Shown: positions 504 through 58,261, numbered from the whole stretch's first letter. The stretch is DNA of 63,179 bases, filler included, from Neolecta irregularis DAH-3 (GCA_001929475.1; 4 parts of 4 records of this genome joined end to end with filler, not necessarily neighbours in it), one strand, 5' to 3'. Numbers and translations: made by a program. Notes: generated by a model from the letters alone, not told the origin.

Positions 504-2525
504 CTAAACTGAAGCATCTAAAGCATCTGTCACTATTTTAACCAACTGATTTCCTTCCTCGAGTCCAACACTCATACGCACCAGAGAAGCCTCTACTCCG
601 TAGTTGGAAGCCTTGCCCGATATGAATAAGTAGTTTAAGTAGCGCTGTCATACCCATGGGAGTTCATTGTAATGAGCTAGTAGCGTATATGGGGAGCATA
701 AAGTGAAGTTAGTGCCCAGTGAAGGGCCTTTGGGTAGGGGTAACGCATCAAAGAAGCTTTTGGCTTGGCCTACAGTTTCAAAGGTGAGCGATAATAGTCC
801 TCCGTATCCAGCACCTTCAAGGCGAATATGATCATAAAATAGTCTTGATGGATTGATCTTGGGATAATATACTCGTTTTACTAGTCATGAGCCAGACGCA
901 CAATTCATCAAGACCCTGCCTGCAGGATGTAATTGAATGGCCTCACATAACATCTCGGCATTGGAATTGATCCTGTGGATTCGGTCAACGAAATCTCGAC
1001 TATTGCGTTCCAAATGTACTGCATCAGTAAGCCAAAGGGTATCTTCATATTCAAGCTTCATGGCCTTCTTTAAACGCTGGTAAAATCGCGATCTTGGGTT
1101 CAAGACCAAACTAGAATTGAGCCGGAACTGGGACTCATTCTATTACCTGCCACCCATAACATTGCTGTCTCCGCTGAAAACTTTTGTGAGACTACTAACA
1201 ATAATATCTGCATATGGGAGAACATTGATGTTGGCGAATGTTCCAATCGTCTCATCAACAACGACGCAAAAATCAAACTTATCAGCGAGTAAATGTATTC
1301 GGCTGAGATCAGGAGTTGTAAGAAGTGGATTCGAAGGGGCCTCGCAAAACAATGCAAGAATTTTCTCTCCAGAGTTTAGCAATCTTTCTATCTGGTCGAG
1401 TTCCTCCGATGATGCAAAGCCATAAAAGTAACTCCCTGGACCAAACTTGTCAAGAATCTTCAAAGTATCCGAATAAGGAAATCTATGGTGTTAATATCTA
1501 TGCAACTCAAATTACCCTTAGATACCCATAGCATAAACTTTTGAACTCGCCAATGATATTGAGAAGGATTCGATGGGCATTATAGATGGCACTCATACCA
1601 CAAGGATATAAGTAAACATCGTCCTTGCACAGCCCATTCCACTGCCTTGACTGCAAAGCGAGATCTTGGTTGACGATTGATTCATGAGACGACAACTGTT
1701 TCAGTATTCCAGAAATTCTTTGTCTAAGCGCCGTCTTTGCTCGATCTGCAAGTTGAACAATTACGTTTCTTCCATAGTGCTCTTCGAGATAAGTGAGATG
1801 ATCACTCTGCAATGTCTCTTGAGTGATGCTGAGTGTTGTTTTCTCTGCATTGTAAGGCTTCCTTGCATAATGACTATGAAAATGTGCAAACGACATATTG
1901 GAGTTCGGATCAATCGCAGATTGCTTGTGCTTGCTAGTTCTGAGCTGTTGCAAGAAATACTCTGCCATTCTACTTGAGATTCCTTCTCCAGTATGCTGCC
2001 AGAAAGCTTTCGCAACTTTTGAGAGGCTAGGATGGAAAAAAGCAACGAATATGTGAGCGGTCAATTCTGACTTTCCATGATCAAGACTCTCGTTTGTGTA
2101 ACTGGAAGCCAACAAATGAACGGTGTGTATATCGGAGACAAAGCGACCATTCAACGAATCAGAATATCTACCAACAAATTGTTTAAAACGCTGAGAGATC
2201 TGCTCGGAAGGAAATATCATGGCTTCTTCTTCGGGTTTACCAAACTTTTGAAGACAAGCTAGACCAAGCTGTAGCGTCAAACAGCATTCTACTTCAAAAA
2301 TGCAGATACTTGCCGAATAATTGGGTTTATAAAAAATCTAGGCGTCAATTCGCGCATCTATAACACCTACCGTGGATAACCAGATTTCATGCATTCATGA
2401 ATCCACCTCTCGCCCTCCTCATAGGCCACATTATCAGACCATTTAGGCAAAGATACAGATATGGCATGCGGAGTGTCTTGGGGCAATTCATTACCAACAT
2501 CGATACCAACGGATGCAGTAGTCAT
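504..2525 (-). CDS. Cystathionine gamma-synthase (Str2-like, PLP-dependent), multi-exon
   Basis: N-terminal [47 protein letters not shown] (PLP lysine), [12 protein letters not shown]-terminal [12 protein letters not shown] at 504-506. Confidence 0.9.
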
Positions 2526-2582
2526 GGTTAGAAGCAGTAACCTTGATCACGTGTATACACGCCTCCGTCAAATTTTTATGCA

Positions 2583-5500
2583 ATGGTCGGCATATTGATA
2601 AAAAGAAAAAGAACAGAAGAGGATTCTGTTGCAAAATGCAGCGAAACCGGAAGAGGAGCAGTAGCTACGGCATCACAGGATCCGATATCGGCGCCGCAAT
2701 CTACTGGATCTTTCACTGCTCCAAACACATACGACGAGGCATATTCACACAACATGCTCAAGCTGGAGACGGACGAAATTTTGGACGAAGTCAAGATAAA
2801 TTTCGAGCGTCTTGGTGAGGTTGATGAGTTACTTCGAAAAGTGAAGAGTTTGATCGAAGAGATTCCTCCTTCTTCTGAGATGAAGGTACGTTTGTCTTTT
2901 AGAACTACGACTCAAACATTCAGATTTTGGACTATGCCCAGCGCTTGCACGAGAAAGGCAAGATTAAGGTGCCTTTTTGCGAACCAAAGCCCTCGAAAGA
3001 AGCGTTAAACATGTTTGCCTATGAGAAACCCATACGAGTTTCAGTTATTGGGAGCTTCCTCCTTCAAACCATGGCAAAACACCCGGCTGGCCTAGTGATT
3101 GATCTGGCTGTATGTATGCCAAAGGTACGAAAGCCAGTTCACTGTTGCGATTTCTAATCCAGACTGCGTTTCAAGAGAAGGATTACCAAGATTACCGATA
3201 CTTCCACAAAAGAGCATGTTATGTTTCTGTTATTGCTTCAGAGATACAGAAGAAAGCGAAAAGTCTAGATATCACTGCTTCATTTGATGCATGGCATGGA
3301 GACCTTCAAAAACCAGTACTCCTTATCCGCCCCAAGACCAGTAACTTATCTATTATTTTGTTCTAAACTTATTCTCAAGAAACTAAGAAGGTGAATTTCT
3401 CAATCCGAATAATTCCTGTACTTTCGGAAGATGCTTTTATAATCAAGAAGCTTAATTCAACTCGATGTAATATCCGACATTTACAGCTAGAGAACCCCTC
3501 GAAAGAATCCACGCCAAGATATAACGCTTCGATCTTGGCAGATATGCAAACACAAAAGAGCCTCGAATTTTTGTATGCACAACAAAAACTTTGTGTAGGA
3601 TTCAAAAATGCCTGTGTTCTAGGACGAATTTGGTTAGAACAACGAAAGTTCTCTGGGAATTACTCAGAAGGCGGCTTCGGAATTTTCGAGTGGTCTATGT
3701 TGTTGTCGTTTTTACTTCAAGGCGGTGGCCCTCGTGGCGGTAAGTTGCTTGCTGGAGGATACACCTATGTGCAATTGTTTAAAGGGGTACTTCAATACAT
3801 TGCTACGCATGATTTGATTGAACAACCAATCAAGTTCGATACAGGAAAGTTGGCAGTGGCAGTGGCAGTTACTGGTTGTCCTGTTCTTGAGGATGCTAGC
3901 TCCGGTTTGAATTACCTCTATAAAATGACTAGATCTTCATATCTACAGGTATACCAATTTCTTTTTCGACTGACAATCAAGTTAAAATTTGAGGCCGAAA
4001 AAGCGCACCTTGCCTTGCACAATAGTTCGAATAACTCTTTCGAAGCTCTTTTTTTGAGAGAAATTCCACATGATCATTTGCGCTATGATATGTTTTTCAG
4101 GTTTGACGACCTTTTCAATTATCGTCGTCGCTTATGATGATAGATTATCAATTTCTCCTGATATAGCAGTCTCTACGACCGATATTATCGAGCCTACATT
4201 ATCTAGAATCGCGAAGATTGAGGATGTCATCCGAAAGACCTTATTAGATAGAGTTTCTCTAATTTCTATTCGTTCTGCAACAATTCCAACATGGAGACTG
4301 AACGAAGTTACTCCTTCATACAACAACCGGGCCCTAGATGTCGGGTTTATTCTGAACCCTGAACGTTGTGACAGAATCGTCGAAAGAGGTCCTTCCGCGG
4401 ACAACAGGGAAGCTGCAGAGGAGTTTAGAACATTTTGGGGAGATAAAGCAGATCTTCGAAGGTTTAAGGATGGAAGCATCAAAGAAAGTGTCGTTGCTCA
4501 ATCGGAACCATCGAAGTTTTACCCTGTCATCATCGAAGAATTCCTTGACTGGACGCTCCAGAGACATTTTGGAGAGCAAGTTGCAAAATGTTCTAGGTCT
4601 ATGGGGATGGTCGTAGCATCATCTCTCGACTTTGCAACAGAATATCTTCCAGCCGTGAAATCATTAGCTTCTCAAGTGGAATCGTTTTCGCCGATTGTTG
4701 CTGCATATGATGACATCGGTAAAGCAATCAAAGGACTTGAAGATTTACCTTTACGAGTATCGAGTATTATGGGATCTAGTCCAGCTCTGCGGTACTCTTC
4801 CACTCAAATTCCCCTTCCACATCCCCAAACAAATGCTGCAAACCTTCCAGAGTCCTGTCAATATCTTCAGCCAATCGATTTTATCTTGCAACTGGAAAGC
4901 TCAGGCAAATGGCCGGATGATCTCGAAGCTATCAAGAGAGTTAAAGTGGCCTTTCTTCTTGACATCTCTAGGCGATTACAAAGTCAGAAATCAATCCCAT
5001 CTCAAATTCACATTCAAACGTCCCGACATGGCCGAGAATTTCCAGTGCTTGAAATATATCACAGCACTGGATATGTCTTCCGTGCTCAATTACATCATGA
5101 TCGAGACGCTACGCTGTACCAGAATAAGATTAACCAGCTCACGGCATTGAAAGATCCCTCTTTTAGTCGTTACAAAGATCTCTTGTCCGACTATACCCAA
5201 ACGTTCGTGGCTGCCCCACGACATACTTTGCAGATTCAGGCGTTATGTCAGCAACATCCTTACTTATCACCGACTATTCGTCTTGTCAAACGATGGATGC
5301 ATAGTCATATGCTGAGCCCTCACATTGACGATGAGAGTATCGAACTCCTTGTCGCAAGCGTATTCACAAGCCCTTTCCCCTTTCATATTCCATCTTCGGC
5401 GGTTACGGGATTCTTAAGAGCCCTCCAACTTCTCTCTTCTTGGGATTGGAGACTTGATCCAACTATTGTGACTACTATTGATCCCATTGATGCGAATGAA

Positions 5501-6385: not shown

Positions 6386-9300
6386 TCAGAGTGCGTTTTT
6401 TAATAACTTTTGTGACGTTGACAAGTCATGTGGATATCTGCGAACATCAGTCCACAAACTTGGAAAGACAGATTACCGGCATCTTGCATCTTGCAGAGAT
6501 ATTACTTCGTAAGAACCTTCTTGAGAAGTAAAGAGACTGTAGACGTGCTCATTCGTCTGCACAGTATGCGTCTCATAAATTTTGGGTTTTGTTTTTCGTT
6601 TCTTATCTACGACTTCAGTTCGAGCGTAGGTGAACGAAAAAGGCGGCTCTCCATAGAAATGGAAGTTCAGTTCTGCTTGTTCACCTACCAGTAAGCATTA
6701 TCATGTACCAATAACATGCCTTCGTGAATGTCTTCCACAATGCTATTTCCCTGAGCTACACGTACGGAGGGAATGTCATAAATTGGTTTCGAAAGTCCTA
6801 CTGTTGCCTTGCAATTGCTCCCTCTGTCACTTACAGAAATGATAGTCCAATTGCCAGGCTTCTCCGCAATTCTTGTAAATGTTCCAGTAGGACTGGATGC
6901 GACTCTTCTCTTTCCTTGAAATTCATATTCAATTTGCCAGGGTGCTTGACCGGCGAGATTGTAGGAAACTTAAAGTTAATGCTTTCAGGACTCTTGACAT
7001 ACTCCTATCTCCTACACAATACCAAGTCCTTTCGTCAACTGGATGAATCGAAGGAATTTCAGTGACAGAAATGGTAATGTGTCCTGCAGAATTAGGGTCG
7101 ATGTATCTCGCACAGCCATTTGCGTCGGTAATTTTAGCGATTCGTATCCGATGTCTTCCAAGAGTCATCGCTTGAGCTGGCAAGCGCAGTTCATAACTAT
7201 TTTTGGTGATCGAAAAGGAATTAAATGAATCAGTACGACCACTGATTTCATGTTTGATCTCAATTTCGAGAGCAAAGGGAGCAGTCCCTTCTAGTTTAAG
7301 AGGAATTCCTTCGGTATCTGTATCTTCCGGGTCTGTATTAAGACAGTAGGAATATGTTTTGCCAGGATTTGCGAAATTTGCGGTTGGCTTAGGGTTGACT
7401 CGCTGCTTGACGAGGAATAAAGAATCAGAGTCCGGGCTGTTAATATCTGTGTAAAGTGCATCTGAAATTTTCTTGAAGCGATACTGGACTTCTCCTGATT
7501 TTGTACTAGTTATTCGAATTGATGCATGAGGCAACGCCGCAGTAAGTTCTTTGTGGATAGGTCTTTCAGCGTAACCATCTTCGGTAAAATGGATAATGTC
7601 ATAGTCTACCGTGAATGGCGGATTTCCTTCGCATTAGCGATAATACTTGAGAGCATTTATATACCAGAGAATTCTACGGTGAAGATATCCTCGTCACCTT
7701 CGCAAACATCGTTTCGTGTAATTACACGTTCATCTCCAGAAATAGATGGCATTCTCAAAGAAGGTTTCTCCAACCAACCAACTTTGAAGCGCTGACCTTC
7801 AGGATCAAGAGTACCAGGGCAGCTGGAATCCTTGATCTCGACGAGCTCGTATTCGCCTTCTTCCGTAACTGTCAAAAAATCGTTCGCATCTGCAATTATC
7901 ACGACTACAGGCATGTTATTGGGTTTCGGGCGATTCAAATTTCGATAAGAGACTTGCCATGGCTAAAACCTAAGCATTTCAACTTTAGCAGACATACCTT
8001 ATTGCCAGTCAAGCGCAAGGGAATTTTTACTGAAGATCCTTCCGTGACCTTCATCTCTCTGGATCCATCTAAAATGTAGAAATGCCCCCTGGGTCTCTCC
8101 CTCCTGACTTCTAATTTGACGTCCTTCTCCTTCAGCATTGTTTTGCAACCATTTGAGTCAATAACTGTAGTTAAAGAAACTGTATATGTTCCTCCACTTG
8201 TCAATTCAGGTGTTTCTATTGTGAACTTATAATTCGAGATGTTATTCGCCGTCTTCTTATCATGTTTACCGTTTGGATATATAAAATCATAATGTAGTTC
8301 AAACGGTGCCGACCCAATGAGCTTCACACCGATCTTATCGTTGGACCCCAGGCATATTTTTCGTGGAGAATGTCTATTACCCAAGTCAAAGGCTGCACTA
8401 GCAAGTGGGAAGACAGTCTGTTCGGTTCGTAGTTTCTTTCGGTCCAGTTCAATATTATTATAATTTGCATCATTCAAGTTCGTAAATTCATAAATATAAT
8501 GACCCGCTTCTTCAGGCGTGAATCGTAGTTGCTGCCGTAATCTCTCCACCTTTGTACGATGCGAGGAAGCATGTTTCTGGTCCCTAATAATACGGTAATC
8601 GACAGTGAAAGGTGGTTCTCCGATGAGAATAAGGTCAACCGAAGTACCAATTGATCCTGTGCACTTATCTTCGATTGAATCAAAAGATACATCGAGACTT
8701 GGATGAGGAGGGGTAATGACTGTACAAATCGAAGGCTCGAGAACTTCTCCGCTGCAGAACGAAGTGTGGATGGAACGAAGGGAATAGATCCCAGGTTTGC
8801 TAATGGCAAGTTTGTCGTTTGGTTCCTTGAGCGCAATAATCTTTTTGTGCACTGTGGAGCCTTCACCGACCTTATATTCCAATTCAACGCTAAAAGGACC
8901 TGGGTCCTGTGATCGTACTTGAAACGGTAACTCGCATTTGCGACCTTCAAGGAGCTTCAAGGTTGGATGACAATCCTGAAAGAATACTCTTGGTCGTTCG
9001 TGGACTCTAAAGATTTGTGACTGTTCATTACCAAGCGGCATTGGATTATCGCCATCCTTATACGAGACGATATTTCCACAGGCATCCTGGACTTCTTCAA
9101 TTCTGTACATACAGTCACCAGCAGTCGTAAGTGAAGAGTTGAGTCGAATATCAACAACGTGTGTCTGAGCCCAAGATAGATCAGAGTCTTCCATTTTTGC
9201 GAGAGCATTCGAGCCTTGACTGAATAAAGGAGATGAATAACCATCCGGCTGTACACTTTCGATGGTAGAAATTGACTGACGGTCCGTTACTTTCCGGCTG

Positions 9301-12846: not shown

Positions 12847-13919
12847 ATGGAAGATGCATGTCAACCGAATCCAAACCAATGATTTATGCTGACGCTTGAT
12901 GCAGATTGATCGCTTCGCTACCACTTTTTCCCTAAACCCGTCTATTTTCCCATATTCGAAATCCCTTGTAGCTACGATCACCCGTCGCAGAGAACAACTA
13001 GGCCAATTATTCATTGATCTATTCTTGACGCAACTCGCGCAACTTCCGAATGCACCGTCGTTTTATCCTCCTAAGTCGCTGCCGGATCTCAAGAATTTGT
13101 ATGCACAAATCGATCAGAGCAATTTAAATCCACTACAGAAACAGTCTTATTATTACTATTTATTAAAAGATTGGGGTGCGATGGCTGAAAAATACGCAAA
13201 TTCGATGCAAATTCCCGAGACATATAGACGTTTAATAGATGGATTCTTTTCCATGGATCGCTTTGAATTTGAGGTATATCGATTACGCCTCGAATGATTT
13301 GACAGGATCCAGGACGCGGTTCGACATCTTTCTACGCCATCTCTATACCCCAACTTTTCAGATAAGATAATCGAGACCTTTATTCGGTTTGGAGGAGAGA
13401 ATGGCGCGTTGTTAGCTCTAACTTTTATCAATTCTGCGCAACCTCCTTTGACTTTGGATAATACAATCAAATTGTATGTTTTAGCGATGGTGGACATGAA
13501 CTTGGCATCTGCTTTCATGTACTATGTGAGTGGCAATTGTACAATTAATGCTAACTGCTTAGAGAACATGTCCCGCACATTTACGACACGACCTTTTCAC
13601 TAGCATAATAGACTTTTGTCTTGATCGGAATTCAGGGTCACATATGATGCAGTTACTTGACCTCCCAATGTCTAAAGGTGAACAACAAATCTTTTCATCA
13701 CATCTAAAGGTCTCTGCACATCGACTTGCTTATGAGACTTTACTAGTTTGGAACATCCAACGTGGAAATCCTGTTGCTGCACTATCAATTGCTTCAAGTA
13801 TTGAATCTCGATCAAGCTCGCATGAGCATGGAAAGACTGCCCAGAGAAGAGAATTGATCAACGGACTAGAGAAGTCATTGACTTCTTTGCAGAGAGTAGC
13901 TCAACAACTGAATGTATGA
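12847..13919 (+). CDS. ELYS-domain nuclear pore assembly protein (Ely5-like)
   Basis: LFIDLFL, FYPPKSLPDLKNL, KQSYYYYLLKD, IDGFFSMDRFEFE match the fungal ELYS domain; start inferred through a GC-AG first intron. Confidence 0.8.
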
Positions 13920-19280: not shown

Positions 19281-21885
19281 ATGCGCAAGAAACCCGTTCC
19301 TGTCGCTTTTGAACCGCAGTTCATCAATACACCAACTCAACCTGCTGGAGATATTCTTGCGAAACCATTCAAAGTTCCAGGTTCTGCTACTCGTTTAACG
19401 ACCCGCGATCAACCCGCCCGCAAACGCCGTAAAATCAGTTATACAGAGGCCGCGGTAGATATTAGTGATAACGCGGGCGATGATTCAACGTTTTTTGATC
19501 CTAAAAGGCTACCATTGGTCGAGTTCGACGTGAATAAATTCCCCGTCTTTAGACCGTCCAAGGATCGCGGTTTCATATTTAAACAGAAATTCACAATTCC
19601 AGTATCAAAAACAAACGTCAAACCCCAATTTATTCTCCCCAATCGTCCTTCACCGTCTCTTGGTATGCGACGTAAGGCCAATTTTGTTCCGCGACCTTTA
19701 CATGATCCGAGCGGTGAATTCGCTATTGTCCTTTACGATCCTACGATCGATGATATCCAGGAAGAAAAGATTGAAAGTGAAGTTGCACAAGAGGAAAAAC
19801 CTGTATCAAAAGTGCACAAGTCGTTGGCAGAAATCCTAGGTTTAAAGAAAGATAATGCGCCTCCCGCAAAAGTCGCAGTTGTGATTGACCCTCGTCTTGC
19901 CAAAGTTCTACGGCCGCATCAGGTTGAGGGTGTTAAAGTATGTCTTCCCCTGATTAAACTTTAACAATTGTCTAGTTTCTGTACAAATGTGTTACTGGGA
20001 TGATTGATAAACGTGCAAACGGGTGCATCATGGCGGACGAAATGGGTCTCGGGAAAACTGTATATCCTCTCATAAAGTTGACTAATCTGTAGCTTCAATG
20101 TATCACACTCATGTGGACGCTGCTCAAGCAATCGACAGAAGGCGGCAAACATACAATTGAAAAATGCATCATTGCGTGTCCATCATCTCTTGTGCGCAAC
20201 TGGGCGAACGAGTTGGTCAAATGGCTTGGAAAGGATACTGTCACGCCGTTGGCGGTTGATGGCAAAAGTACAAAAGCTCAATTAGTTGAATCGTTTCAAC
20301 AATGGGCAACTGCTCACGGCCGCAACGTCGTTAGACCTGGTATTATGCGAGTTGTATGTGCTGACTCTAGTTTTGATTATTTCTTATGAAACTTTACGGT
20401 TAAATGTTTCGGCTCTTGAGGGACATGAGATTGGACTGTTGTTGTGTGACGAAGGCCACCGTCTCAAGAATGGGGAATCCCAGACTTTTACCGCACTGAA
20501 CTCTCTCAATGTTCGGCGACGAGTAATTCTCTCGGGAACGCCTATACAAAACGACCTATCCGAGTATTTTTCCCTGCTCAACTTTGCGAATCCAGGTTTA
20601 CTTGGCACTCGCAATGACTTTAGAAAGAATTTCGAGTTGCCGATTTTAAAGGGTCGAGACGCGGATGGTACAGATAAAGATCGAGAAAAGGGAGATCAAA
20701 AATTGCAGGAACTGTCTGCTCTCGTCAATCGCTTTATTATTCGACGGACAAATGAAATTTTATCGAAATATCTGCCGGTAAAATATGAACACGTTGTTTT
20801 TTGTAAACTGTCTCCTTTTCAGAATGCACTTTACGAGCATTTCATCACGTCTCCGGAAATAAAAAAATTGCTAAAGGGTGTTGGATCTCAGCCGTTGAAA
20901 GCTATTGGTTTATTGAAAAAGTTGTGCAATCACCCAGATTTGTTGGATTTACCACAAGACATTGAGGGTTCTGAAAACCTTTTACCCGATGACTTTGTTG
21001 GACGGGACTCTCGAGGAAGGGACCGCGATGTCAAGACGTGGTATTCTGGAAAATTTCTGGTTCTTGATCGGTAAGGAATATAAAGGTCATGCTGATGTGT
21101 AGTATGCTTACTAGGATTCGACAAGATACAAATGACAAGATTGTGTTGATTAGCAATTACACGCAGACACTGGATTTGTTTGAAAGGATGTGTCGGGCGA
21201 GGAGGTAGAGTCTCCAATTTGCAACAGACTAACAGTAGATACGGCTGTTTACGTCTCGATGGGTCGATGAACGTCAATAAACGTCAAAAATTGGTTGACA
21301 AGTTTAATGACCCAGAAGGAGACGAATTTATCTTTTTATTGAGTAGCAAGGCGGGTGGATGTGGGCTCAATTTGATTGGTGCAAATCGGCTTATTCTGTT
21401 TGACCCAGGTATATTTAAATTCAAATAAGCGAGATTGATTGATAAAAGATTGGAATCCCGCGGCTGACCAGCAGGCGCTTGCTCGAGTATGGCGAGATGG
21501 GCAACGCAAGGATTGTTTTGTATACCGATTCATTGCTACTGGGACGATTGAAGAAAAGATCTTTCAGCGTCAGTCTCACAAACAATCGCTTTCGTCTTGT
21601 GTGGTTGACGAAGCACAAGACGTTGAAAGGCACTTTTCACTTGACAACCTTCGACAGTTGTTTGAATACCAAAAGGGTACTGTGTGCGAGACGCACGAAA
21701 CGTTTAAATGCAAACGATGCAAAAATGGAAAGCAGTTTGTCAAGGCGCCCGCTTTTCTCTATGGAGATACGAGCAGCTGGAACCATTTTACGAATGGGTG
21801 TTTGGAAAAGATTCAGGACCTGCTGTTGAGGCAGGAGACGGGAATAGCGGATGTCAGCTTTGTATTCCAGTACATTTCGCATTAA
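19281..21885 (+). CDS. RAD54: DNA repair translocase Rad54 (SNF2 family)
   Basis: [86 protein letters not shown]. Confidence 0.97.
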
Positions 21886-22402: not shown

Positions 22403-22485
22403 NNNNNNNNNNGTACGTTATTGCACACCTTGCCGCCTCGTGATTGCTTGAGATCGCGGTGCGATTCAACCATTCGTCGTGCGAG

Positions 22486-22584
22486 NNNNNNNNNNNNNNN
22501 NNNNNNNNNNNNNNNNNNNNNNNNNNNNNTTAATTAATTAANNNNNNNNNNNNNNNNNNNNNNNNNNNNNNNNNNNNNNNNNNN
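22486..22584. other. Artificial contig spacer (N-run, TTAATTAATTAA, N-run)
   Basis: The same six-frame-stop 12-mer embedded in Ns occurs three times in the window. Confidence 0.95.
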
Positions 22585-23454
22585 NTGTGGCGTTGACCAA
22601 AAAGGTAATATTTTATTTCACTGTGGCGGCGAACGCGGTTAGTGGCGTTTACGAAGAATATAGTTCGCAAAATGTTAATTTCCACCAACAAGTATGATAT
22701 TCCCTGTTTTAGAAAATGGAGATATTCTTTTTGTGTGGCTGGCGAACGCAGCCTTAGAGATCTATAGTACTTTGGTATCGCTTGTCACAGGAAAAAACCC
22801 GTGGCTTTTCCGGGCACTAACACTGACAGAGAAGTTTACGCTGGGAGACTAGGTGCTGCTATCGACCAGAAATTTGACGCCAAAGGATGGCAATATAAGA
22901 AACTTTTTGCCCAGGCAGATAGGGCCATTCCCAATTGTGCATGTTGGGAGCAGTAAAAATTATGGAGTGAGATTGCCGAGTAACATGAAATGAATGAAAT
23001 CATCTTTGTGCAAAAATAATTGTTCACGAACAAGCTTCGTTTTCGTTATTGTCTTCATAATCTGAGTACTATAAATTCAATAGGTTCTATTCTTCAGAGA
23101 TCATCCTCAAACATCATTTTTATTTGTCCAGCAATCAGGGTGCTACATGCCTTCATCCGTTACGCCGTCGCCATCACAGAAGGATCTCTTTTCCTGCAAA
23201 TATAAATTATTTGGTTATTACAGGCTTGAAGTATCGGGTTAAGTTATAACAGTTAAGAAACCCGCAAATTGTCTAAAAGAAATATCTGTTAGCAGGATTT
23301 CAAGTTGCATAGGTATTCCTGAGAGGTGACGCCTAAACCATTCAGCCATGCTGCCCTTGCAATTCTTCTTTGCAATAAGTAAGCTAGAGCTATACTAAAG
23401 TAATATAGGTCTAAATCTTTGGATACATCAAAAATGAACGGAATAAAAGTCTGT

Positions 23455-36497: not shown

Positions 36498-37488
36498 TCA
36501 TCTGGCCATCATTCTGGCAACTAAATCCTTCAAATCCTTCTCAATATATGTCTCCCAAATAGCATAAAAACTGATCATTTCTTGAGTGCAATTCACAATA
36601 CTCTCCATCTCGACGCCATTATCCGCGAACCAACTGATCATTTTGTCGTTATTGCGTGATTCTAGCGATGTGGAAGTTATTCCTGATTTTGACATCTGGA
36701 CGTTGGGAAGAACAATAGAGAGATAGATTGCTGTCAGGGCGATAACATGCGGTGGATATAGAAGGGGAAGATCCGTCATATATGAATCATTGATAATTGC
36801 CCTAATGCTTAGCCAAGCGTTTTGCAGGAGTTGGACCAAGATGTCTGAGTTTCCTCAGGCGAGAGATCCAGTGGTTTGTTCAACTGGGTTAACGTTCGAT
36901 ATGGATGATGTATGATTAAATAACTGCTCATTTCTGAGATGACATAGAACTCGCACTCGGCGAGTTTAGAGGAGTCAAGGGTTACATAGTCTGCCTTGAT
37001 CAGTTCCACCATGTGTCCGCGAATATACCTTGCCAGAGACTCTTTGCTTCACTGACAACTGTGCGGATATGCTGAGGGCATTCTTCCATTTTAGAAGCAA
37101 TGTATACGCAGGTTGCACAGACAAGATAAGGATTTGTTTCTCTGATTGCAACTCTGTTCGCAGATCAGAATGCAGTTGCGTACAAGTGGCTACTTTGTGT
37201 AGAATCGCGCCATGTATACAGCTGCTGTTGCCATCGGCTGCTGGCGAAGCTGAAGCCTTCTACCGAGTCGCTGAATCACTGCATATTAGAGCAGATTATG
37301 GATTCGTTATACGCGAATAGAGATATATTCTGACTAGGCGCAAGTCGTCCTCTTGGCAAAACAGTAAATCGGCTCGCCGCGTATGCTCGAGCTGTGTCTT
37401 TGTTAACTGCCATTTCAATCTATGCCCTTAGAAAAATATCTGACTCTGGCTCGTGCCTTTGGCTCGATGTCCAGTAGTTTGCAGCCAT
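36498..37488 (-). CDS. SSN8: Cyclin C (Ssn8/Srb11), Mediator kinase module
   Basis: [67 protein letters not shown]. Confidence 0.93.
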
Positions 37489-37632: not shown

Positions 37633-39426
37633 ATGCGGCCGCAAAAGGAATCTCAGAAAGACCGGGATGTCAGAATCAAACAGTTGTACGACAAACTCAA
37701 TACCCGACAGGAAGATTCCCTCGATCTCAGTTCGCTAATAGAGGGATTGAAGAAAATTAACCACCCTTTGCAAGACGATCAAGGCGTGCTTAAAGAAATT
37801 CTTCGAAGCGCAGACCTTGACGGGGATGGTAGAGTCACAGCATGAACCCTTGGTATTTACTTGGGGTAATTAATGTCAAGTTTGTCGAGTTTAAGACTTT
37901 CATGGAGAAGAGCGAGATGCATTTGTTTCAATTATTTCAGAGTATTGATAGAGATCGAAATGGAAACTTGTCAATGGAGGAAGTCGAACATGCGTTACTA
38001 CAAGCCAGCGTCACAGTGTCGAAGAAAAATTTACAAGCTTTTTTTAAAAGCGTGGATACTGATAACGATGGAGAGATAACGTTTGAAGAATGGAGAGATT
38101 TCTTGTTGGTACAATGATCCTGATCAACCTGCGGCTAATAAAAGTTTACACCTCATTCATCATTAACAATTAATGCGGTATATGCGTATTATCAAGCAAC
38201 TCATATGTCGTCAGAAGGAGATATCACTTTATCCGATAAGGCGCTTCATGGAATGGGCGACTTTATAGCCGGAGGTATCGCTGGAGCGGTGAGTAGAACA
38301 TGTACAGCTCCACTCGATCGGTTAATATGTCTTGAATGTCCGCACCTAATTTCTTTTCAGATTGAAAGTATACCTTATCTCGCAAACGTCTTCGGAAAAA
38401 CGGATCTCTTCTACAATGAAATCCAGAATATCCAAAGCAGTCTATGTGCCGTCGAAGAATCTTCTCAAAGCGATGATTCAGATATATCGCGAGGGCGGCG
38501 GTATGAGGAGTTTTTTTGTGGGTAATGGATTAAACGTGGTCAAAATATTCCCGGAAAGTGCAATCAAATTTGGCGTATTCGAAGCTTCGAAACGGGTCCT
38601 TGCGCAAATGGAAGGATTACCCCGCGAGAGTTTAGGAGATTTGTCTAGTCTGTCTGGATATTTAGCAGGTGGATTAGCCGGCTCTGTGTCCCAGTTTGCT
38701 ATCTATCCGAGTATTTAATCCACTAGGAAAAGCAGGCTCATTGTTTAGTCGATACCCTGAAATTGTATATTCCTATTCTTCGGAAGCAATCTTAGGTTTA
38801 GTCGTTTGCAATGCGAATGCGTACAAGGCGGAGACCGGGGGAATGTACTTCTTTGCATGATAGTGAAGAGTATGTGGTCAAATGGCGGCATAAGGAATTT
38901 CTATCGAGGCTTGCCTGTTGGCTTGATAGGAACTTTTCCATACGCTGGTACTCTCTTTGAAGACAAAGAGTTGTTAATATTACAGCCATCGATCTAGGGA
39001 CCTTTGAAGGATTAAAAAAAGCATATATCAAAGCCAAAGCGAAGCGTCTGAGGATCCCCGAGAGAAAAGTCCAACCAGGAAATTTCGTAGTTTTGGGGAT
39101 CGGTGCATTAAGTGGGAGCATCGGAGGTACGTCCCTTTTCAGGTGCATTTCATTTAAGATATAGCAAGTCTGGTATATCCCCTGAATGTCTTGCGAACTC
39201 GGTTTGACTCCTTTCGATGCATAAAATTCACTTTTATAGTTTACAAACACAAGGAACTGCGGCTCATTGTCAACAATACGCTGGGATCCGTGACGTTTTT
39301 CAGAAGACTGTTAAGAATGAGGGATATAGAGGGTTGTTTCGCGGACTGCTGCCGAATTTATTGAAAGTCGCACCGGCAGTCTCGATTTCATATGTTTTAT
39401 GGGAAAATTTAAGACCAAGGTATTAA
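37633..39426 (+). CDS. Ca2+-binding mitochondrial ATP-Mg/Pi carrier (SCaMC/Sal1 family)
   Basis: EF-hands (DLDGDGRV, DRDRNGNL, DTDNDGEI) plus carrier repeats AGAVSRTCTAPLDRLK, GNGLNVVKIFPESAIKF, PNLLKVAPAVSISY. Confidence 0.92.
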
Positions 39427-42354: not shown

Positions 42355-42433
42355 TGCCCACAGCCGGAATCGAACCAGCGATCTTCGCTTGTCGTAGTAC
42401 GAGAGCGACGCTATACCACTAAGCCATGCGGGC
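42355..42433 (-). tRNA. tRNA-Thr(CGT) with a 7-nt intron
   Basis: GCCCGCATGGCTTAGTGGTATAGCGTCGCTCT-CGT-A[CTACGAC]AAGCGA..GGTTCGATTCC..GTGGGCA. Confidence 0.92.
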
Positions 42434-42710: not shown

Positions 42711-44595
42711 ATGTTCCAGGGTGAACGCGCGAATTTTCTCGCCGGTATCAAAACAGATGCGGAGGACATTCGAAACCAAAACGGTACAAAAGAACCTAAA
42801 AGATCGATCAAGAATTAATTTTAGTTTTGGCTACTCAATCTATTGCAAATGTTTTAAAATCATCGCTCGGGCCGGTTGGACTGGACAAAATGCTTGTAGA
42901 TGATATCGGAGTATGATCGAGTCGTTCTGATGATCATTAATCGAGCAGGATGTGACAGTGACAAATGATGGAGCTACTATTCTCAGCCTTCTCGACGTTG
43001 AACACCCTGCAGGTCGCATTCTCGTTGAACTAGCCCAGCAGCAGGACAAAGAAGTGGGTGACGGGACTACTTCTGTCGTTCTTGTTGCAGCGGAGCTTTT
43101 GCGGAGAGCGAATGAATTGGTCAAGAATAACATCCATCCTACTACCATTATTACCGGTTATCGATTAGCATTGAGAGAAGCTACCAAGTATATCATCGAA
43201 GTTATGAGCAACTCTGTTGAGAGTCTTGGAAAAGAGTGTCTTCTTAACGTTGCAAAGACTTCAATGTCGAGTAAAATTATTGGGAGGTCTGATTTTCCAC
43301 CTATAGTCTCACTGATTTTCAAAGTGATTCGGATTTCTTCGCAAATATGGTAGTCGATGCTATGCAATATGTCAAAGCTACAAACAACCGTAATGAAGTG
43401 CGGTATCCAGTAAAAGCTGTAAATATTTTGAAGGCACATGGTCAGAGTGCTCTCGAATCGATATTAGTTAAGGGCTACGCCCTTAATTGCACTGTTGCCA
43501 GTCAAGGTATATATCACATAAGTATATGTTCTAAGCTCTAGCAATGAAGACAAAGATCACTGGAGCCAAAATTGCCTGTCTCGACATGAATTTACAAAAA
43601 ACAAAAATGGCCCTTGGCGTTCATGTTACAATTGATGATCCTGATCAGCTCGAAGCGATTCGCAAACGAGAAGCTTCAATCACTTTAGAACGTATCCAAA
43701 AAATCCTTAACAGCGGTGCCAACGTTATCCTTACGACGAAGGGCATTGATGACTTATGTCTAAAGTCATTTGTGGAAGCTGGTGCCATTGCGGTAAGAAG
43801 ATGCAAGAAGGAGGACTTGAGACGTATTGCAAAGGCTTCAGGAGCGACTCTAATCAGCACTCTATCAAATTTAGATGGCGAAGAGGTATTTGAAACTTCT
43901 TCTCTTGGATATGCGGAGGAAGTTATCCAAGAAAAGATCTCGGATGATGAATGTATCCTCATTAAAGGAACAAAGGCGTTTAGCTCGGCGAGTATCATTC
44001 TTAGAGGGCCCAATGGTTATTATGCCCGGAGATACAAACAGCTGATTTTTAGATTATCAGTTGGAAGAAATGGAACGCTCGATCCATGATGCACTTTCCG
44101 TAATCAAACGAGCGCTCGAAAGCGGCCGCGTCGTTCCTGGCGGAGGAGCAGTTGAGACGGCATTGAACATATATTTGGAAAATTTTGCCACCACTTTGGT
44201 ATACTGTTCCAAGATAATGTTCTAATCGACAGAGCTCTAGAGAACAGCTCGCTATTGCCGAGTTTGCTGCTTCACTACTAACAATACCCAAGACTCTTGC
44301 TGTCAATGCCGCGAAAGACTCTTCTGAACTTGTTGCCAAACTCAGAGCATACCATGCTGCTGCTCAAGGTGCTCCGGAAAGTGATATCAAACGACGAAAG
44401 AGAAAGAACTATGGTTTAGATTTAATCAACGGGACCCTCCGGGATAACATAACCGCTGGCGTCCTTGAGCCTACTATGTCTAAAGTGAAGAGCTTGAAGA
44501 GTGCAGTTGAAGCTTCAATCTCGATCTTGAGAATCGATAGCTACATTGAAGTAGACCCAGAAAAGCAAAGGGAAGATGATGGGCATGGTCATTAG
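42711..44595 (+). CDS. TCP1: Chaperonin CCT/TRiC alpha subunit
   Basis: [60 protein letters not shown]. Confidence 0.96.
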
Positions 44596-48005: not shown

Positions 48006-48021
48006 TACGTTGTCGTTCCGA

Positions 48022-48122
48022 TNNNNNNNNNNNNNNNNNNNNNNNNNNNNNNNNNNNNNNNNNNNNTTAATTAATTAANNNNNNNNNNNNNNNNNNNNNN
48101 NNNNNNNNNNNNNNNNNNNNNN
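48022..48122. other. Artificial contig spacer
   Basis: N-run, TTAATTAATTAA, N-run. Confidence 0.95.
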
Positions 48123-48354: not shown

Positions 48355-50804
48355 TCAAATCTGATTCCAATCCAGCCTCACGACTAGACCGAGAAGCGAA
48401 CTCGTCTCTGTGGCAGCGTAATAATTAAGGGCATCCATGAGAATTTTCAGATGGTGCGTAAAATTCTCCTCGTATCTACGCAGCACATCTTCAAGTTTCT
48501 TCATGCGGGTTTCATCAAAGAATGGTTCATTATCTCCTGATTTTGCATCTGGATTTGTTATTGCCAATGTGAGGGAACGGGCGAGCTGAGAGGTGTATTG
48601 GGCAAAAATAGTACAAGTCGACATAATTTTTGTGTGTATCTTATCATTAGCAAAATAGATGACAATATGATACCTTCAAAAGTTTCGTGTTGGTCAACAT
48701 ACATTCCTTCAGGCATGTATCCAGTGTATCAATATGTTCATGCAAAAGTTGGTCCACAGTTTTGATCTCTCCAAGTTTCGAAATCCATTCAAGCCATTTC
48801 TTTTCAACAACTTCAGTTGTGGAGAAATATGACAATTGTTGGACATAAATCAGCATCCTCGCCCTGAGAGCCCAAACTCTGGTTTTCCATTTCTCCACTG
48901 CTTGATGAGATGATTTATTGCGCCAAGTTGCAAGTTTCATATGATCCAGCCAAGCGGCGCCAAGTTGCTGTTCGAGATATTTCATTGAGATGAGGTGTCG
49001 AAGCAGCAGTTGGTATCGAAGAACAGCTTTTCGAGATATAACGAGGGATAGAGGGAATGGAACCTTGTAATTGAATTGAAGTGCAGACATTCCTTAATCA
49101 TAAACAAACAAAAAAAGGTGTGGGTTGATACCGCTAATTGGTTTTTTATCGCTATCCTTTTCCTTATCTGCAGATCCTGGGGGCCCGCTGTGCCAGCCCC
49201 CGTCAAGAGGAATAGCATCCTCAGAAATACCACTAACGCTCATAATCTTCATCAACCATTCCGTTAGCCCGACTTCGTTCATATCTACCATGATATCGTC
49301 TTTGAAGGGATCACTAGCGGCGATAGAACCGGGCATTCGGATTGACAAATCCAATAAACTTTGTAGTTTCGTTAAGGAGACCTGTTTATAGGCTTTCTTC
49401 AGTTCATGAGAAGCAAGATCTAGAAATGTGGTGAAGAAATCGGACTGATCAAGAAAGAAATAATGCTTAAGAGATTGAAGGCGCGCAGGAAGTTCGTGTG
49501 TTGATATGAGAAGAGATAGCAGGGAAGCATTTGCGTGGGCATATGCCGAGTTGATATTTTCAAGAAATCTGAAGGTCAGCTGGGGAATTGCATTGCAGCT
49601 ACTTTTGATCGTCAAAGGTTTTAGGGACGTCAGCTCCGGTTCGTTTCGAAACATCTACGCCGCCACATTCCCTTACGACATTAAGGTATTTTCCAGCAAG
49701 CAGGACTTGTTCTTTTACGCTTTCGAGCTGAGGCGGGATGTCGACCTCTTTGATTGTATATCTTTTTTCCCAATACTCATCCGTATAGTCCTCGTCCAAG
49801 CCGTCCTTCTTGATGCTTTTTTGTTCTTTAATCATGAATTCCTGATGCGGATCTTTGATTTCCCCTCGATGTAACCAGTCATTCAGCATAGTCATGTAGG
49901 GTTTTGACGCTTCGTGAAGTAAGTGACAAAGTAATTTCCGAGCATTTGGATCTCCTCCGGTTGTTAAGAGCTTTGCAGCCAACAATCCGAGAATCGCCCC
50001 ACCCTTGCATATCTTGTGTTTTTGGCCCGTTACCGCAGCTGCAATATCGTTTCCTTCCCGCAGTGAATTTAGTATTCCTTCAATATCGTCGAAGTCGTCA
50101 GCATCGTCTTTTTGTATCATGTTTTGCTTAAGCACGTCCTTTACAAGCGAATTGATATGGAACATAGAGTAGGACATAGGAAGAGTATGAAGATGAAGCG
50201 CGTGAAGAGTGATACTCGACGGTGACAAATATTGGTGTTCCAGCTGGGCCACTAGTGTGAGATATTCCTGTGATGAGATCTAGAGAAAACATATGGTTCA
50301 AACCTTTAGCAGATTTCGTATGGATGCGCATAAAGAGTGGTTAATCGATCCGTATTCCGACTTGCTATGGATATTGACAAAAGTCTCAATACTAATGAAC
50401 CATGAAGCCATTTTAAGCACTGAATAGGTGAGGTCGGACAGGCTAGGGTCTGACAGGTCAATTAACGGGCGTAAGGAGTCTAGCAACCTAATCCAGGCAC
50501 TAATCGATATGCAGGCCCCACGACACAATGTTTCTCGTTCTGTGGATCATACGTCTCCACGAATTTGATATAATCGCCTTCAAATCCCCATTGTAAGCCT
50601 AAATGGCTGAGTGCTGTGGCATACAAGCAGAACGTATAGCAGATCACTAATGATAATAGATTCCTGGGCTTCCAGCGACAATCCCTCGATTGTATCCTGA
50701 AAAGTAGCTGCGTCAATTGCTGCAGACGAATACGTGATCTGAATGCGCGAAGCTAGTGGAGCGGTGGTGTGGGGATTTACAATTACCTTTGTGAATACAG
50801 ACAT
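48355..50804 (-). CDS. Gamma-tubulin complex component GCP2 (Spc97/Alp4); start approximate
   Basis: QESIIISDLLYVL..GFEG, WLHRGEIKDPHQEFMI, YTDEYWEKRYT, VLLAGKYLNVVRECG, LKHYFFLDQSDF, YKVPFPLSLVISRK, LDTCLKECMLT. Confidence 0.92.
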
Positions 50805-50975: not shown

Positions 50976-51707
50976 ATGACCTCCAACTTCCAGAACGTCG
51001 TCGTTGTCGATGGAAAGGGCCATCTCCTCGGTATAAGGCGTCTTCAATATTTGCGGTCTTCTGATTTTGCTAACAGGCCGACTTGCGTCCATCGTAGCCA
51101 AACAACTACTCAGCGGTCAACGGGTTGTCGTTGTTAGATGCGAAGATTTAAATATATCTGGAGAATTCTTCAGAAACAAATGTGTGAATTCATTTATCCA
51201 TAATGAATACTGACTTCCTCCCAAGTAAAGTTTCATGCATATCTACGAAAGCGATGTCGATATAATCCAACTCGAGGACTCTTCCACTTCAGAGCCCCAA
51301 GTCGTGTTTTCTACAAGGCCGTCCGTGGCATGATCGCACATAAGACCGCACGCGGAGCTGCCGCTTTAGAACGATTAAAGGTCTTCGAGGGTGTCCCTCC
51401 TCCATATAGTCGAATGCAACGCGTGGTTGTACCTCAGGCTCTCCGAGTCCTAAGACTTAAACCTGGTCGAAAATACTGTACCGTCGGACGCTTATCAAAG
51501 GAAGCATGTTCATGGTTATCAGAAAAGCATACTGATGTGATTTAGGTCGGATGGAAGTACCAAGATGTTGTCAAAACCCTCGAGGAACGAAGAAAAGTCA
51601 AGGGAGCCGCTTATTATGCCAAGAAGAAGGCTCAACAACAAAAACTGGAGTCGGCAAAGAAGAGCGCTGGGGAGATCAATGACAAACTTGCTGCCTTTGG
51701 TTATTAA
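50976..51707 (+). CDS. RPL16: 60S ribosomal protein L16 (uL13)
   Basis: [59 protein letters not shown]. Confidence 0.96.
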
Positions 51708-53128: not shown

Positions 53129-53237
53129 ATTAATATCCGAGTCTTTTTTCTGAGACAACCCTTTACTTTTTTTCGCCTTGATTTATACCAGATATAACGA
53201 GCTTCCCCCATGATCAGACATCATTTCATTCTCCATC

Positions 53238-54329: not shown

Positions 54330-57300
54330 TCACCTAACGTAAAATCCATCCCTTCTTGAACAACGACAATCACAATCTGGCACTGCGCAAGTCTCATGCT
54401 TCTCGAACCATGCTCTAGAATGACCAGCATGCATACCATGGCTACACCCAAGACAGATATTGAATGATTTCTCTGCCGGGAATTCTTCAGTTGTTTCAAT
54501 AGGAGGTACTCCAAGCGGTAAGAGACATAAGGCACAACGAGGAAGCGGCTTGTTGCAATTTGGACAATGAGTTGACTTCAAAATCAAAATCAGAGATAAA
54601 TGAAAAGAACCTTATTGATGTGCTGAAGACCACTGATTCCATTGCGTGAATACATCTGTGGGAAACGCTTTCCCCTGATGTTATCATCGATATGTGTGAT
54701 ACTCTATATTGTTAGCAAATGTGGTAATTATTTTGTTTGCACTACCTGGTCGCAATGGTTACATCTCACGACAAATCCACGCTCAGTTTTCATGAAATTT
54801 CCGTTCATCCGAGATATTTTTCCTCTTTCAATATCAAATTTGGACCGCTGGTAAAATAACCTCCAGCTGTTCAGCAATTCACGGTAACTATAGTCAGACA
54901 GGGCATCCTAGAAGTCTCACCTCTCGATCCATATGTTAAATCTATCATCCAATTTCTTAGCAAAAGAACAAACCAAAGCAGCAGTTTGAACATCACCAGT
55001 TCTATCCACGTAAATTTGAAGAAGGTCGCCAAATTCAGGAGTAAGTCCGGTGATATATACACCCTCAAAATCTCCACTGGTAATAACTTCTTTTCCCAAA
55101 GTTAACAAATAATTTGAGAGCTTTCCCAAGTCAGTTTTACCCAAACGATATTATCAATCTTACATCCTCGTCATCGAGAAACCTGAGCGCGATACCAAGT
55201 CTATCCCGTAAAGGCAAGGCCGCATCATCAAGAACATCTCTCCATTCCCCGTTCGCAATGAAAGCATAAATTGCTCTGAGATAGGGTTCTTCGAGTTCAT
55301 TACTCAGTTTTCGACATAAGTCTCTCCAGATAGGATTTTTGTTCGTTTTTGTATTGAGATGTCCCGCTACCGCGGTCGACATGAGTTTGAGTTTGTCAGT
55401 TCCTTGAGAGAGAGAGCGAATACAACGATCTATGTCACCATGAAAGCAGGCCCATGCTGCAGCCTTTTCATATTCCTTTCGGGATTCGATACTTGGTGTT
55501 GGTTGGGGATAAGGCGGGATACGTACGCTTGAAGTTTCTCTTCGAGTTCTGGAAGTGCAAAGTCCCAACCACAGAGAATGAGAGAAAGCTGTCGTTGTTC
55601 AATCCTTGACGGGACTGCGCAGAAGATTCGGTTTGGATAGCGATGAACTATGTCTGTGACTGCTTGGAGATAGGCGTTATCATTCGTTGGACCGTTCGTA
55701 TATCGCATCTGATCTCGGGTGGAAGATGGCCTTGAGTTGGCACCAGATACGCCGAACCAAATCCCCCAAACACCTTGAAAGGAAAGATTGAATTGTCCGG
55801 ATTTCAAGGACCCGTTCTGAGAACGAAGCTGAGCAAGCGACAACCACATCCATAAATCGCGCTCAGGTTGATCTATTGACAGGTCCATGTTTTTACTCGG
55901 CTGTAGTATCAGTGAATTCATCCTAAAGCAATCTCACATCCATAGAATAACCAATTTCGGCTTTCCTTTTCATCCTACTAGAGACATCTCGATCAAGAAT
56001 ACCATTGGTCTTATTGATTCCTTGAATCGCAGCGTTAGGTGTTGGTGAGATACAGGATCCCCCAGGACGAGTTCTTTTTTGCGGTTTGAGGGCATCCTCA
56101 TCTTCAGATGAGTCGATATCCCATTCGTCAAGATTGGGATTTCTGGGAGTAACTTTGAAAGATACCAAGTTTTCTTGGCGGGAAATTGTAATTGAATTGT
56201 ACGGGTTAACCGAAAATGATCTTAGAGGTTTGAAAATTACTTCGGTTTGAATAGATGAGTTGTCATGAATGGTCAAGATTTTGTTGGGCTTTTTGTCTGG
56301 AAATTCGCTGTCGAGGATCCAATCAAAAGATCTAATACGGTCCATTCCCTCGGAGTTTGAAGGTACTTGAATGTCAGCCGCATTTTCGATAAAATAGATG
56401 CACCGTCAGCAGTCCTCCAAACTTGAGCCAATGTTTCACTCCGTTCTTCAACACGATAGACTTTGCTGCTTTTCTCCTCTATTATTTCCCAAGCCTTTAT
56501 CATTCCATTTGAATTCAGAATTGCCAAGGTTCCGTTCTCAATCCGTAAATCGAGAATAGGAAAGGTTCGACCGTGTTCTTCGGCGCTCGCTTTGTTAAAC
56601 TGTAGAACAGGTTCTCGAAAACTCCGCCGGTCCCAAACTGCAACTGAGCCGTCATCAGAACTAGAAGCAAAGAAATTTCCAGCTGCAGGGATTGCTATGT
56701 TATACATGCATCTCGTTGAAACAGACTTCGAGGGATGTCCGAGGGGTTCTGTTTGTTAACCAGGTGTTGAGGAAAACCTTGCCTCGGAAATCATAAATCC
56801 TAAGAGCTTTCGAAGCACCTGCTACGACTTCATTGGTGTCAAGAAAGCCTAGAGAACATATAGTCTCGGCATAAGCAAATTGGACAATTTGTCCATGATG
56901 GACACTTTCTCGACTGCTGCTTTCAGGTCTGCTACTCGGATTTGAGGTAGTCCTTTCGATATCCCATATCACTAATGAATAGTCATTGCGAACTTTATCT
57001 AACCCTGTAGCGAGAAAGTTCTGTGAGAAGGAAATAGTAGTGCAGGGTCGTTGATGTTTCACATCAAGGGGAATCGACGATTCCCGTTCAACTAGTCGCT
57101 GGAGATAGGCGGTGCCAGAACGTGTGCCGTATGCGATGAGATCTACTGTAAGCTGAAGTAAACTGAGCCTCAAGTACTGGACTGAACCGGGGACCAAGCA
57201 AGACACTGAGTTTTCAGAGACGATTAAACAACAGATGTACAGTTGCCCCTACTTCGACTCTCTTTGCAAGTTCCTCTTCGAAGTAAACATCCTGAAAGAT

Positions 57301-57453
57301 CAAGGTTTATCCTCTGTGTAATGATATTCCTACATGTGTATATTCATTTTGAACAATCTTGTAAAGCGTTACTTCTTTTCCCTTCGTATCCAATATAACA
57401 AACTCCGCATTCAAGGGATTTTTCCTTAGAAAAAAAGACCTGCGATCATCCAT
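54330..57453 (-). CDS. SEA4: SEA/GATOR2 subunit Sea4 (MIOS)
   Basis: WD40 with LATGLDKVRNDYSLVIWD, YLRAIYAFIANGEWRDVL..LPLRDRLGIALRFL, YVDRTGDVQTAAL, C-terminal LPRCALC..CSHGMHAGH..CAVPDCDC. Confidence 0.93.
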
Positions 57454-57537
57454 TGATAATCATTCAGAGATGCGGAGTTCGTTATGAAAGTTTCGGACTG
57501 GTCGATGTCGACACTTTTTTAACTTCCACAAATAAGG

Positions 57538-58261
57538 ATGAAAGACACGCGTCCCAAAACTTTTACAAACCAATACGAAAATGATCTTCATGGAAATATC
57601 GGTGTTAGTAAAGTCAAGAAACAGGTAGTTTTTCTTCTGTAAAGAAGGATTAATGAGATGTCAGATTCGAGATACCTCTCGTTTGTTAAAAAAGGTATTT
57701 ATGAATAGGGATAAACTCCTGACAGAAGGACTCAATACCTGCGAATGTTCGGATAGATAAAGAGCGAGAGCTCAAAGCACTGAACGAAAAGCTTGCTGAA
57801 TTGTCACAAGGATCCTTGGAAAAGAAGATATCCAAAAAATACAACATGGTTAAATTTTTCGGCAAGCACACTCCTCAAAAACATTCTGACAGGTGGAGAA
57901 AGGAAGAAGGCAGTCCGGAAGATTGAGCAATTGGACAAGAAGATGAAACATTGCCAAGATGATGAGCAAAAGAAGAAGATACAGGCAGAAATTAAACGGT
58001 ACCAAGTGGATATCAACTATACCCTGGTATTCTATTTAAAGGGTCCGACTGACCCTTGAGTTTTTCCCGCGTGCAGAGAAGTACGTGTCGTTGTACAAGA
58101 GCGGAGAATCCGGAGTACGAACTCGTGTTAGACGTGATATAGAGAATAGGATGGACGAAGGTAGGCTAGATGTTGCAGCCCCTTCTTTATTAAAGAATGC
58201 AGAAAAGTGCCCATTACAAGAACACCAGAAGGAAGCCGCCCAAGACGACTTCTTTGAATAA
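57538..58261 (+). CDS. EFG1: rRNA-processing protein Efg1
   Basis: KVKKQIRDTSRLL, ERELKAL, KKYNMVKFFERKKA, DINYTLFFPRAEKYVSLY, C-terminal DDFFE. Confidence 0.88.

Follow-up and report, generated by a model that had tools for sequence, protein, structure and literature searches.

A cluster of probable U2-type GC-AG introns in a 63-kb window of the fungus Neolecta irregularis

INTRODUCTION

Introns with GC-AG termini account for 0.37-0.86% of the introns in the five model species treated in one survey (PMC1557818) and for 1.3% over 61 species in another, in which very G+C-rich algae were the only exceptions (PMC3033335). For fungi, a GT-AG share of 98.7% is given (PMC7072748). Among the exceptional algae, Aureococcus anophagefferens, Micromonas pusilla, and Chlorella sp. 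have GC-AG shares of 39.6, 22.2, and 7.7%, respectively; the authors of that survey linked the excess to G+C content, the genomes being 66-70% G+C, and termed its origin an enigma (PMC3033335). It is both general knowledge and the account given in PMC1557818 that GC-AG introns follow a compensation rule, i.e., that they are otherwise nearer to the 5' splice site consensus. A U12-type GC-AG class has also been described, with GCATCC donors (PMC1557818). Here, we analyze GC-AG introns in a stretch of 63,179 bases from Neolecta irregularis DAH-3, which in its whole length is referred to as the window. A sequence-only reading of this DNA had proposed at least eight such introns and a lineage-specific permissive spliceosome. 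Six of these introns were confirmed by the continuity of the encoded proteins, and their donors turned out to be strong rather than weak.

Our search of the literature on GC-AG introns together with Neolecta or Taphrinomycotina returned no report of a GC-AG excess, and the words "intron" and "splice" are absent from the main text of the N. irregularis genome paper (PMC5309816).

RESULTS

All eight candidates carry GC at +1/+2 on the strand on which they had been proposed (8/8) and AG at the 3' end (Table 1). At six sites (919, 6719, 37456, 37840, 51504, and 57862), once exactly this intron is removed, the reading frame is open again and the protein aligns collinearly with its homologues, and at none of the seven testable sites is there an in-frame GT-AG alternative with zero net change in residues. 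Judged by this protein continuity, the six sites are confirmed as ordinary GC-AG introns. Of the proposed minimum of eight, a seventh, in the SEA4/MIOS gene, is probable, and the eighth, upstream of an ELYS-like gene, is unsupported.

Table 1. GC-AG introns and rival GT-AG introns in the window (the slash marks the exon-intron border)
Feature	Positions	Strand	Length (nt)	Donor and intron sequence	Phase	Status
GC-AG intron, cystathionine gamma-synthase (CGS)	881..919	-	39	cag/GCAGGG...CTCATGACTAG	1	confirmed
Rival GT-AG intron, CGS	881..946	-	66	GTGAGG		in public model P0001; donor 27 nt upstream
GC-AG intron, POM152	6685..6719	-	35	aag/GCATGT...GCTTACTGGTAG	1	confirmed
Rival GT-AG intron, POM152	6647..6708	-	62	GTACAT		in public protein P0242
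Proposed GC-AG intron before ELYS-like gene	12856..12904	+	49	gat/GCATGT...TGCTGACGCTTGATGCAG		not supported
GC-AG intron, cyclin C	37420..37456	-	37	aag/GCACGA...TTTCTAAGGGCATAG	2	confirmed
GC-AG intron, SCaMC-type Ca-binding mitochondrial carrier	37840..37880	+	41	aca/GCATGA...TAATGTCAAG	0	confirmed
GC-AG intron, RPL16/uL13	51504..51545	+	42	gaa/GCATGT...CATACTGATGTGATTTAG	0	confirmed
Rival GT-AG intron, SEA4	56683..56722	-	40	GTTTCA		in public model P0121
GC-AG intron, SEA4/MIOS	56749..56782	-	34	gag/GCAAGG...GGTTAACAAACAG	1	probable
GC-AG intron, EFG1	57862..57898	+	37	tcg/GCAAGC...TTCTGACAGGTGGAG	1	confirmed

With the GC donor, the CGS protein shows no gap relative to 24/24 printed homologues (of 120 listed, 40 were aligned, and 24 rows plus P0001 were printed). 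Leaving this intron unspliced leads to a stop after 11 codons, and the donor at 919 was chosen by our gene finder with 16 donor dinucleotides permitted. The GT-AG intron of the public model removes 9 residues that all of the printed homologues retain. In POM152, the junction produced by the GC donor is gap-free relative to 29/29 other homologues, and the exons on either side of 6719-6685 match Pom152 Ig-like Pfam domains. A GT-only model loses 14 residues here. The intron of the public protein (6708-6647), in which no YTNAY branch motif was found, results in translation of four intron codons ("GMLL") and in a net loss of 9 residues.

The cyclin C protein P0122 is reproduced with the GC-AG intron 37456-37420, i.e., the public model of this gene is already GC-AG. 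This model gives a 7-residue W..W spacing, which was found in 80/80 homologues with a recognisable N-terminal motif (39 of 119 identifiers were dropped, as the N-terminal pattern was not matched), and the only nearby GT alternative, a 25-nt intron, adds 4 residues. A further GC candidate in cyclin C, at 37033, was rejected, since the public model uses the GT at 37028 instead. In the SCaMC-type carrier, exon A aligned through residue 66 of the human SCaMC-1 chain 4zcu_A and ends on residue 67, and exon B begins at residue 68 with base 37881. Splicing at 37840-37880 rebuilds the 12-residue EF-hand loop DLDGDGRVT/FVE, whereas without splicing a stop follows after 1 codon, and use of the nearest alternative GT costs 2 loop residues.

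In the alignment of RPL16 with chain 7olc_LO, GRLSKE closes exon A at residue 146, and VGWKY opens exon B at the next residue, 147. The terminal TAG of the intron between them is an in-frame stop, and there is no GT-AG alternative with zero net residue change. In EFG1, residues 2-62 of the upstream frame lie on positions 14-74 of the Pfam Efg1 profile, so that residue 46 falls on position 58, and the downstream frame begins at profile position 59 with the Glu of the split codon. The GT alternative 57849-57906, the first choice of the gene finder, deletes 7 residues.

The SEA4 site is contested, and the region of the junction allows five in-frame solutions. In the upstream exon, the match to MIOS_WD40 stops on the final residue before the GC donor, and the GC model retains residues worth +4.8 bits in a generic WD40 match. 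Its peptide STRCMYNIAIP fits, in a reading by eye, the pattern T-[KR]-x3-[GD]-[VI]-x-[VL]-[DN]-P of positions that yeast Sea4 and human MIOS share, which the GT model does not. The sum of signal and coding scores, computed without a Pfam bonus and without a GC penalty, is 7.97 nats for the GC model versus -0.07 nats for the GT model, a margin (8.0 nats) that resembles those of CGS (8.1) and POM152 (11.4). The donor of the GT rival scores -1.43, and no YTNAY branch motif occurs in its 40-nt intron. The homologue search for SEA4 returned the public model P0121 as the sole match. An argument for the GT model from conservation across strains was withdrawn, since the public proteins are encoded exactly by the window DNA. 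We consider the GC model 56782-56749 to be probably correct.

The intron proposed before the ELYS-like gene found no support. Just three codons (ATG GAA GAT) stand 5' of the donor, the length of 49 nt is outside the range of the reference introns described below, and an ATG at 12899, in frame inside the proposed intron, gives an intron-free start, MQIDRF. As a measure of chance, about 12% of XYANGN hexamers have a branch-like motif and a YAG downstream. When the segment is read unspliced (12847-12882, +), the upstream ATG opens an upstream open reading frame (ORF) of 11 codons, whose TGA lies a short distance 5' of the main ATG (12899).

As a reference for donor strength, we compiled 33 GT-AG introns, comprising 26 undisputed introns of public models, six of the SCaMC gene, and one of Rad54. 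They are 32-46 nt long (examples are in the segments 21071-21102 and 38711-39239, both +), and the local donor consensus is aaG/GTATGT. Their donors have A at +3 in 22/33 cases, G at +5 in 13/33, both in 8/33, and T at +6 in 14/33; these +3A and +5G counts imply that the 5' splice site beyond GT is very degenerate here. The same picture emerged at junctions between exons with Pfam support, where the introns measured 31-43 nt, the GT donors were loose, and a branch-like YTNAY motif stood a short way 5' of the YAG. The other five SCaMC junctions were all solved as GT-AG introns of 37-38 nt. The shortest exons, found for example in the SCaMC and cyclin C genes, measure about 20-60 nt.

The GC donors differ from this background. 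GCANG is present in 8/8 of them, compared with 8/33 of the reference GT donors (Fisher P = 0.0009 for the six confirmed sites), and in the larger set from the gene finder +3A occurs together with +5G in 24/70 GT donors. With +3A and +5G in every case, the GC donors are closer to the local consensus than most GT donors of this host. Their position weight matrix scores correspond to the 63rd-96th percentile of the host GT donors (Mann-Whitney P = 0.009), and all lie above the GT median. The sequence-only reading had correctly noted GCATGT at three donors (6719, 51504, and 12856), but its description of several others as weak beyond +2 did not withstand this comparison: GCAGGG, GCACGA, and GCAAGC rank at the 81st, 96th, and 81st percentile, respectively, of the host GT donors. 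In length, the six confirmed GC-AG introns (35-42 nt, or 34-42 nt with SEA4) fall within the range of the GT introns. With SEA4 included, all of them terminate in YAG, and YTNAY is found 7-21 nt from the 3' end in 6/7, cyclin C having CTAAG. An assignment to the U12 type, defined by a GCATCC(T) donor and a TCCTTAAC-like branch site, does not fit, as 0/8 donors have ATCC at +3 to +6.

Six to seven of about 100-120 introns in the window are GC-AG, a share of about 5-7%. The total is an extrapolation, because the gene finder, which called 74-79 introns in the window, found, of the 30 introns in the public models of four genes, no more than about 19; it is close to the figure of about 100 from which the sequence-only reading had estimated a share several-fold above 1%, and this excess holds within the window on the estimated denominator. 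At an expected rate of 1.0-1.3%, the binomial P is 0.0021-0.0073 for at least 6 GC-AG introns of 130 and 0.00007-0.00035 for at least 7 of 100.

The gene finder used Pfam-guided bonuses and allowed 16 donor dinucleotides at equal penalty; it replaced ab initio versions that under- or over-called introns, and it misses tiny exons, e.g., those delimiting five SCaMC and four cyclin C introns. It picked 3-4 GC donors per run and five distinct ones overall (919, 6719, 37840, 51504, and 56782), all of which are among the eight candidates. The other 14 non-GT dinucleotides combined received 0-4 picks per run. One of these, in Rad54, was a finder error over an ordinary 32-nt GT-AG intron. Another of these picks spans an N run, and the intron called at 22430-22373 across a run of 10 N is an artefact. 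A GC candidate at 35822 in a DOPA-dioxygenase gene was discarded in favour of the GT donor at 35826, which has the better Pfam coverage.

In the CCT subunit gene (44030-44218, +), no piece covers positions 353-390 of Cpn60_TCP1, one piece stopping at 44086 and the next beginning at 44218, and the gene finder placed an intron starting with AG at 44030-44060; the gap may be explained by a tiny exon, by two of them, or by a junction of an unusual kind. In the gamma-tubulin complex gene (50599-50644, -), a candidate AT...AG intron (ATCTGC, 46 nt) was picked in two runs with 16 dinucleotides.

Comparison with public proteins showed to what extent these introns are represented in existing gene models. 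The spliced window DNA reproduces 708/709 residues of P0001 (CGS), 901/902 of P0121 (SEA4), 267/268 of P0122 (cyclin C), and 1231/1232 of P0242 (POM152) in exact blocks. Three of the four proteins bear the name Neolecta irregularis DAH-3, and the homologue searches give the same closest relatives. As the four proteins are reproduced essentially letter for letter, the window sequence is that of the public annotation. The public models of these genes contain 30 introns, 29 GT-AG and 1 GC-AG. The only length outliers are those of CGS (66 nt) and POM152 (62 nt); the other 28 measure 33-46 nt. At least two public models, P0001 and P0242, contain GT-AG substitutes in place of GC-AG introns, to the detriment of conserved residues, and P0121 is probably a third.

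In the window, G+C makes up 42.6% of the sequence, and seven short runs comprise 274 N in total. About 30 eukaryotic genes, densely packed on both strands, were detected when open-frame pieces were scanned with Pfam; they include CGS, Nrap/Utp22, POM152, RPS20, ELYS-like, MAM33, Rad54, a PP-type phosphatase, cyclin C, the SCaMC-type carrier, a CCT subunit, a gamma-tubulin complex protein, RPL16/uL13, MIOS/SEA4, and EFG1. Two tRNA genes were the sole Rfam matches in the window, and no small nuclear RNA (snRNA) gene was found there. These tRNA genes, at 23455-23536 (-, 82 nt) and 42355-42433 (-, 79 nt), both match the 71-position Rfam model end to end and may contain a short intron or an extended variable arm. 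Besides a single 10-N run at 22403-22412, runs of 44 N occur in three pairs with 12 bases between partners (22486-22585, 48023-48122, and 61222-61321), a regularity suggestive of scaffolding or masking and not of a biological origin.

DISCUSSION

The GC-AG introns of the N. irregularis window are very probably best explained as ordinary U2-type introns whose frequency was plausibly raised by loose 5' splice sites combined with a length constraint. A C at +2 costs one base pair with U1 snRNA, and the +3A and +5G present in each GC donor offset this lost pair. Generally loose 5' splice sites together with a tight constraint on intron length may be the cause of the frequent +2C, as the short, length-constrained introns of this lineage would depend little on full U1 pairing. 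Individually, the GC-AG introns obey textbook rules.

That the cell instead uses the GT-AG introns of the public models in CGS (946-881), POM152 (6708-6647), and SEA4 (56722-56683), so that the GC sites are not donors there, appears very unlikely. P0001, P0242, and P0121 were reproduced exactly with these introns, and 99.4% of the genes are stated to be supported by RNA sequencing (PMC5309816), a figure that is silent on individual junctions. The GT-AG introns would, however, deprive CGS of the 9 residues kept in 24/24 printed homologues and, contrary to 29/29 homologues, leave POM152 with "GMLL" and a net loss of 9 residues. Moreover, with 66 and 62 nt the CGS and POM152 introns depart from the 33-46 nt of the other 28 public introns, and signal plus coding scores favour the GC donors by 8.1 (CGS), 11.4 (POM152), and 8.0 nats (SEA4) before any GC prior. 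An artefact, in which +2C reflects assembly errors or C-to-U RNA editing and the true donors are GU, is extremely improbable. It would require T to have been replaced erroneously by C six or seven times independently, each time at precisely the +2 position of a real junction, in a window from which four public proteins were reproduced letter for letter and in an assembly with a stated 199-fold coverage (PMC5309816).

A lineage-specific permissive spliceosome, to which donor identity matters little and for which GC is one of many tolerated deviations, had been put forward by the sequence-only reading. The degenerate GT donors (+3A in 22/33, +5G in 13/33, and +6T in 14/33) and the tight intron length of 32-46 nt fit recognition that relies on length and branch point and so lend support to this part of the proposal. 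A free choice at +2 would, however, predict weak GC donors, whereas all of them have +3A and +5G and exceed the GT median. Picks of neither GT nor GC donors number at most four per run over 14 dinucleotides, and the one examined, in Rad54, had been called wrongly. Since the GC donors obey the known compensation rule, the GC class is no evidence of a specially permissive spliceosome, and we regard this explanation as rather improbable. Of the alternatives, a local fluctuation is the least improbable, although we still judge it unlikely: the introns would be real, the genome-wide GC-AG share would be an ordinary 1-2% or so, and the window would represent a selected chance cluster. The evidence comes from one 63-kb window selected by interest, and a window P of about 0.0001-0.007 is not negligible over the couple of hundred windows in a genome of 14.5 Mb (PMC5309816). 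Against a fluctuation, the GC-AG introns are found in six or seven unrelated genes across 57 kb, and after correction 3-4/30 introns in the four public-model genes are GC-AG, a share that is itself biased because these genes were chosen on account of the claim.

Several points weigh against our interpretation of ordinary GC-AG introns at raised frequency. Splicing of these introns in vivo by the major spliceosome is an inference drawn solely from the conservation of the proteins. In SEA4, the rival 56722-56683 is a viable GT-AG intron that reproduces P0121 exactly; it yields KVFLNT, similar to KMFVNT in the human protein, and matches the spacing of the MIOS_WD40 profile exactly, the GC model being 2 residues longer. 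The ELYS intron is unsupported. As to frequency, the denominator of the GC-AG share is approximate because the total intron count was estimated, and the excess was seen in a single window of 63 kb that had been selected for looking unusual. Finally, scans that used motifs only, namely, ORF-pair bridging (1586 pairs), per-dinucleotide ORF joining, and a donor, branch, and YAG composite with shuffles, were powerless to tell real from chance GC candidates. In the composite scan not even GT rose above the controls (37 observed versus a shuffle mean of 37.4), so that these scans speak neither for nor against the GC sites and leave the ELYS intron unsupported.

It is tempting to speculate that GC-AG introns make up at least about 5% of the introns throughout the Neolecta genome, a larger share than is reported for any other fungus and at a G+C content of only about 43%, and that intron definition over 32-46 nt is the cause. 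We put this forward tentatively, as an idea whose chances fall a little short of even. If it is true, U1 pairing at +2 would be nearly dispensable given +3A and +5G, and hundreds of public N. irregularis gene models would contain wrong GT substitutes. Gene finders that are limited to GT, or that accept GC only with hints, mis-build proteins in such an intron-rich fungus, and the faulty sequences from these models spread through protein databases. A genome-wide excess would also mean frequent GC donors that G+C content does not explain, and it would provide a useful natural experiment on the extent to which tiny introns tolerate relaxed U1 pairing at +2.

Compared with the described systems, the introns of the window share GC-AG termini with the U12-type introns that have GCATCC donors (PMC1557818), but their branch motifs are of the YTNAY type of the host. 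With the GC-AG-rich algae they have in common a share far above 1%, although the figure for Neolecta comes from one window and is not genome-wide, and with 42.6% G+C in the window, the explanation from G+C content offered for the algae is inapplicable here. The closest likeness is to the U2-type GC-AG introns of animals, plants, and fungi, which have the same termini and, as here, resemble the GT-AG introns of their host in size and 3' signals. The introns described here differ from these in their local share of about 5-7%, in their length of 34-42 nt, and in being surrounded by unusually degenerate GT donors.

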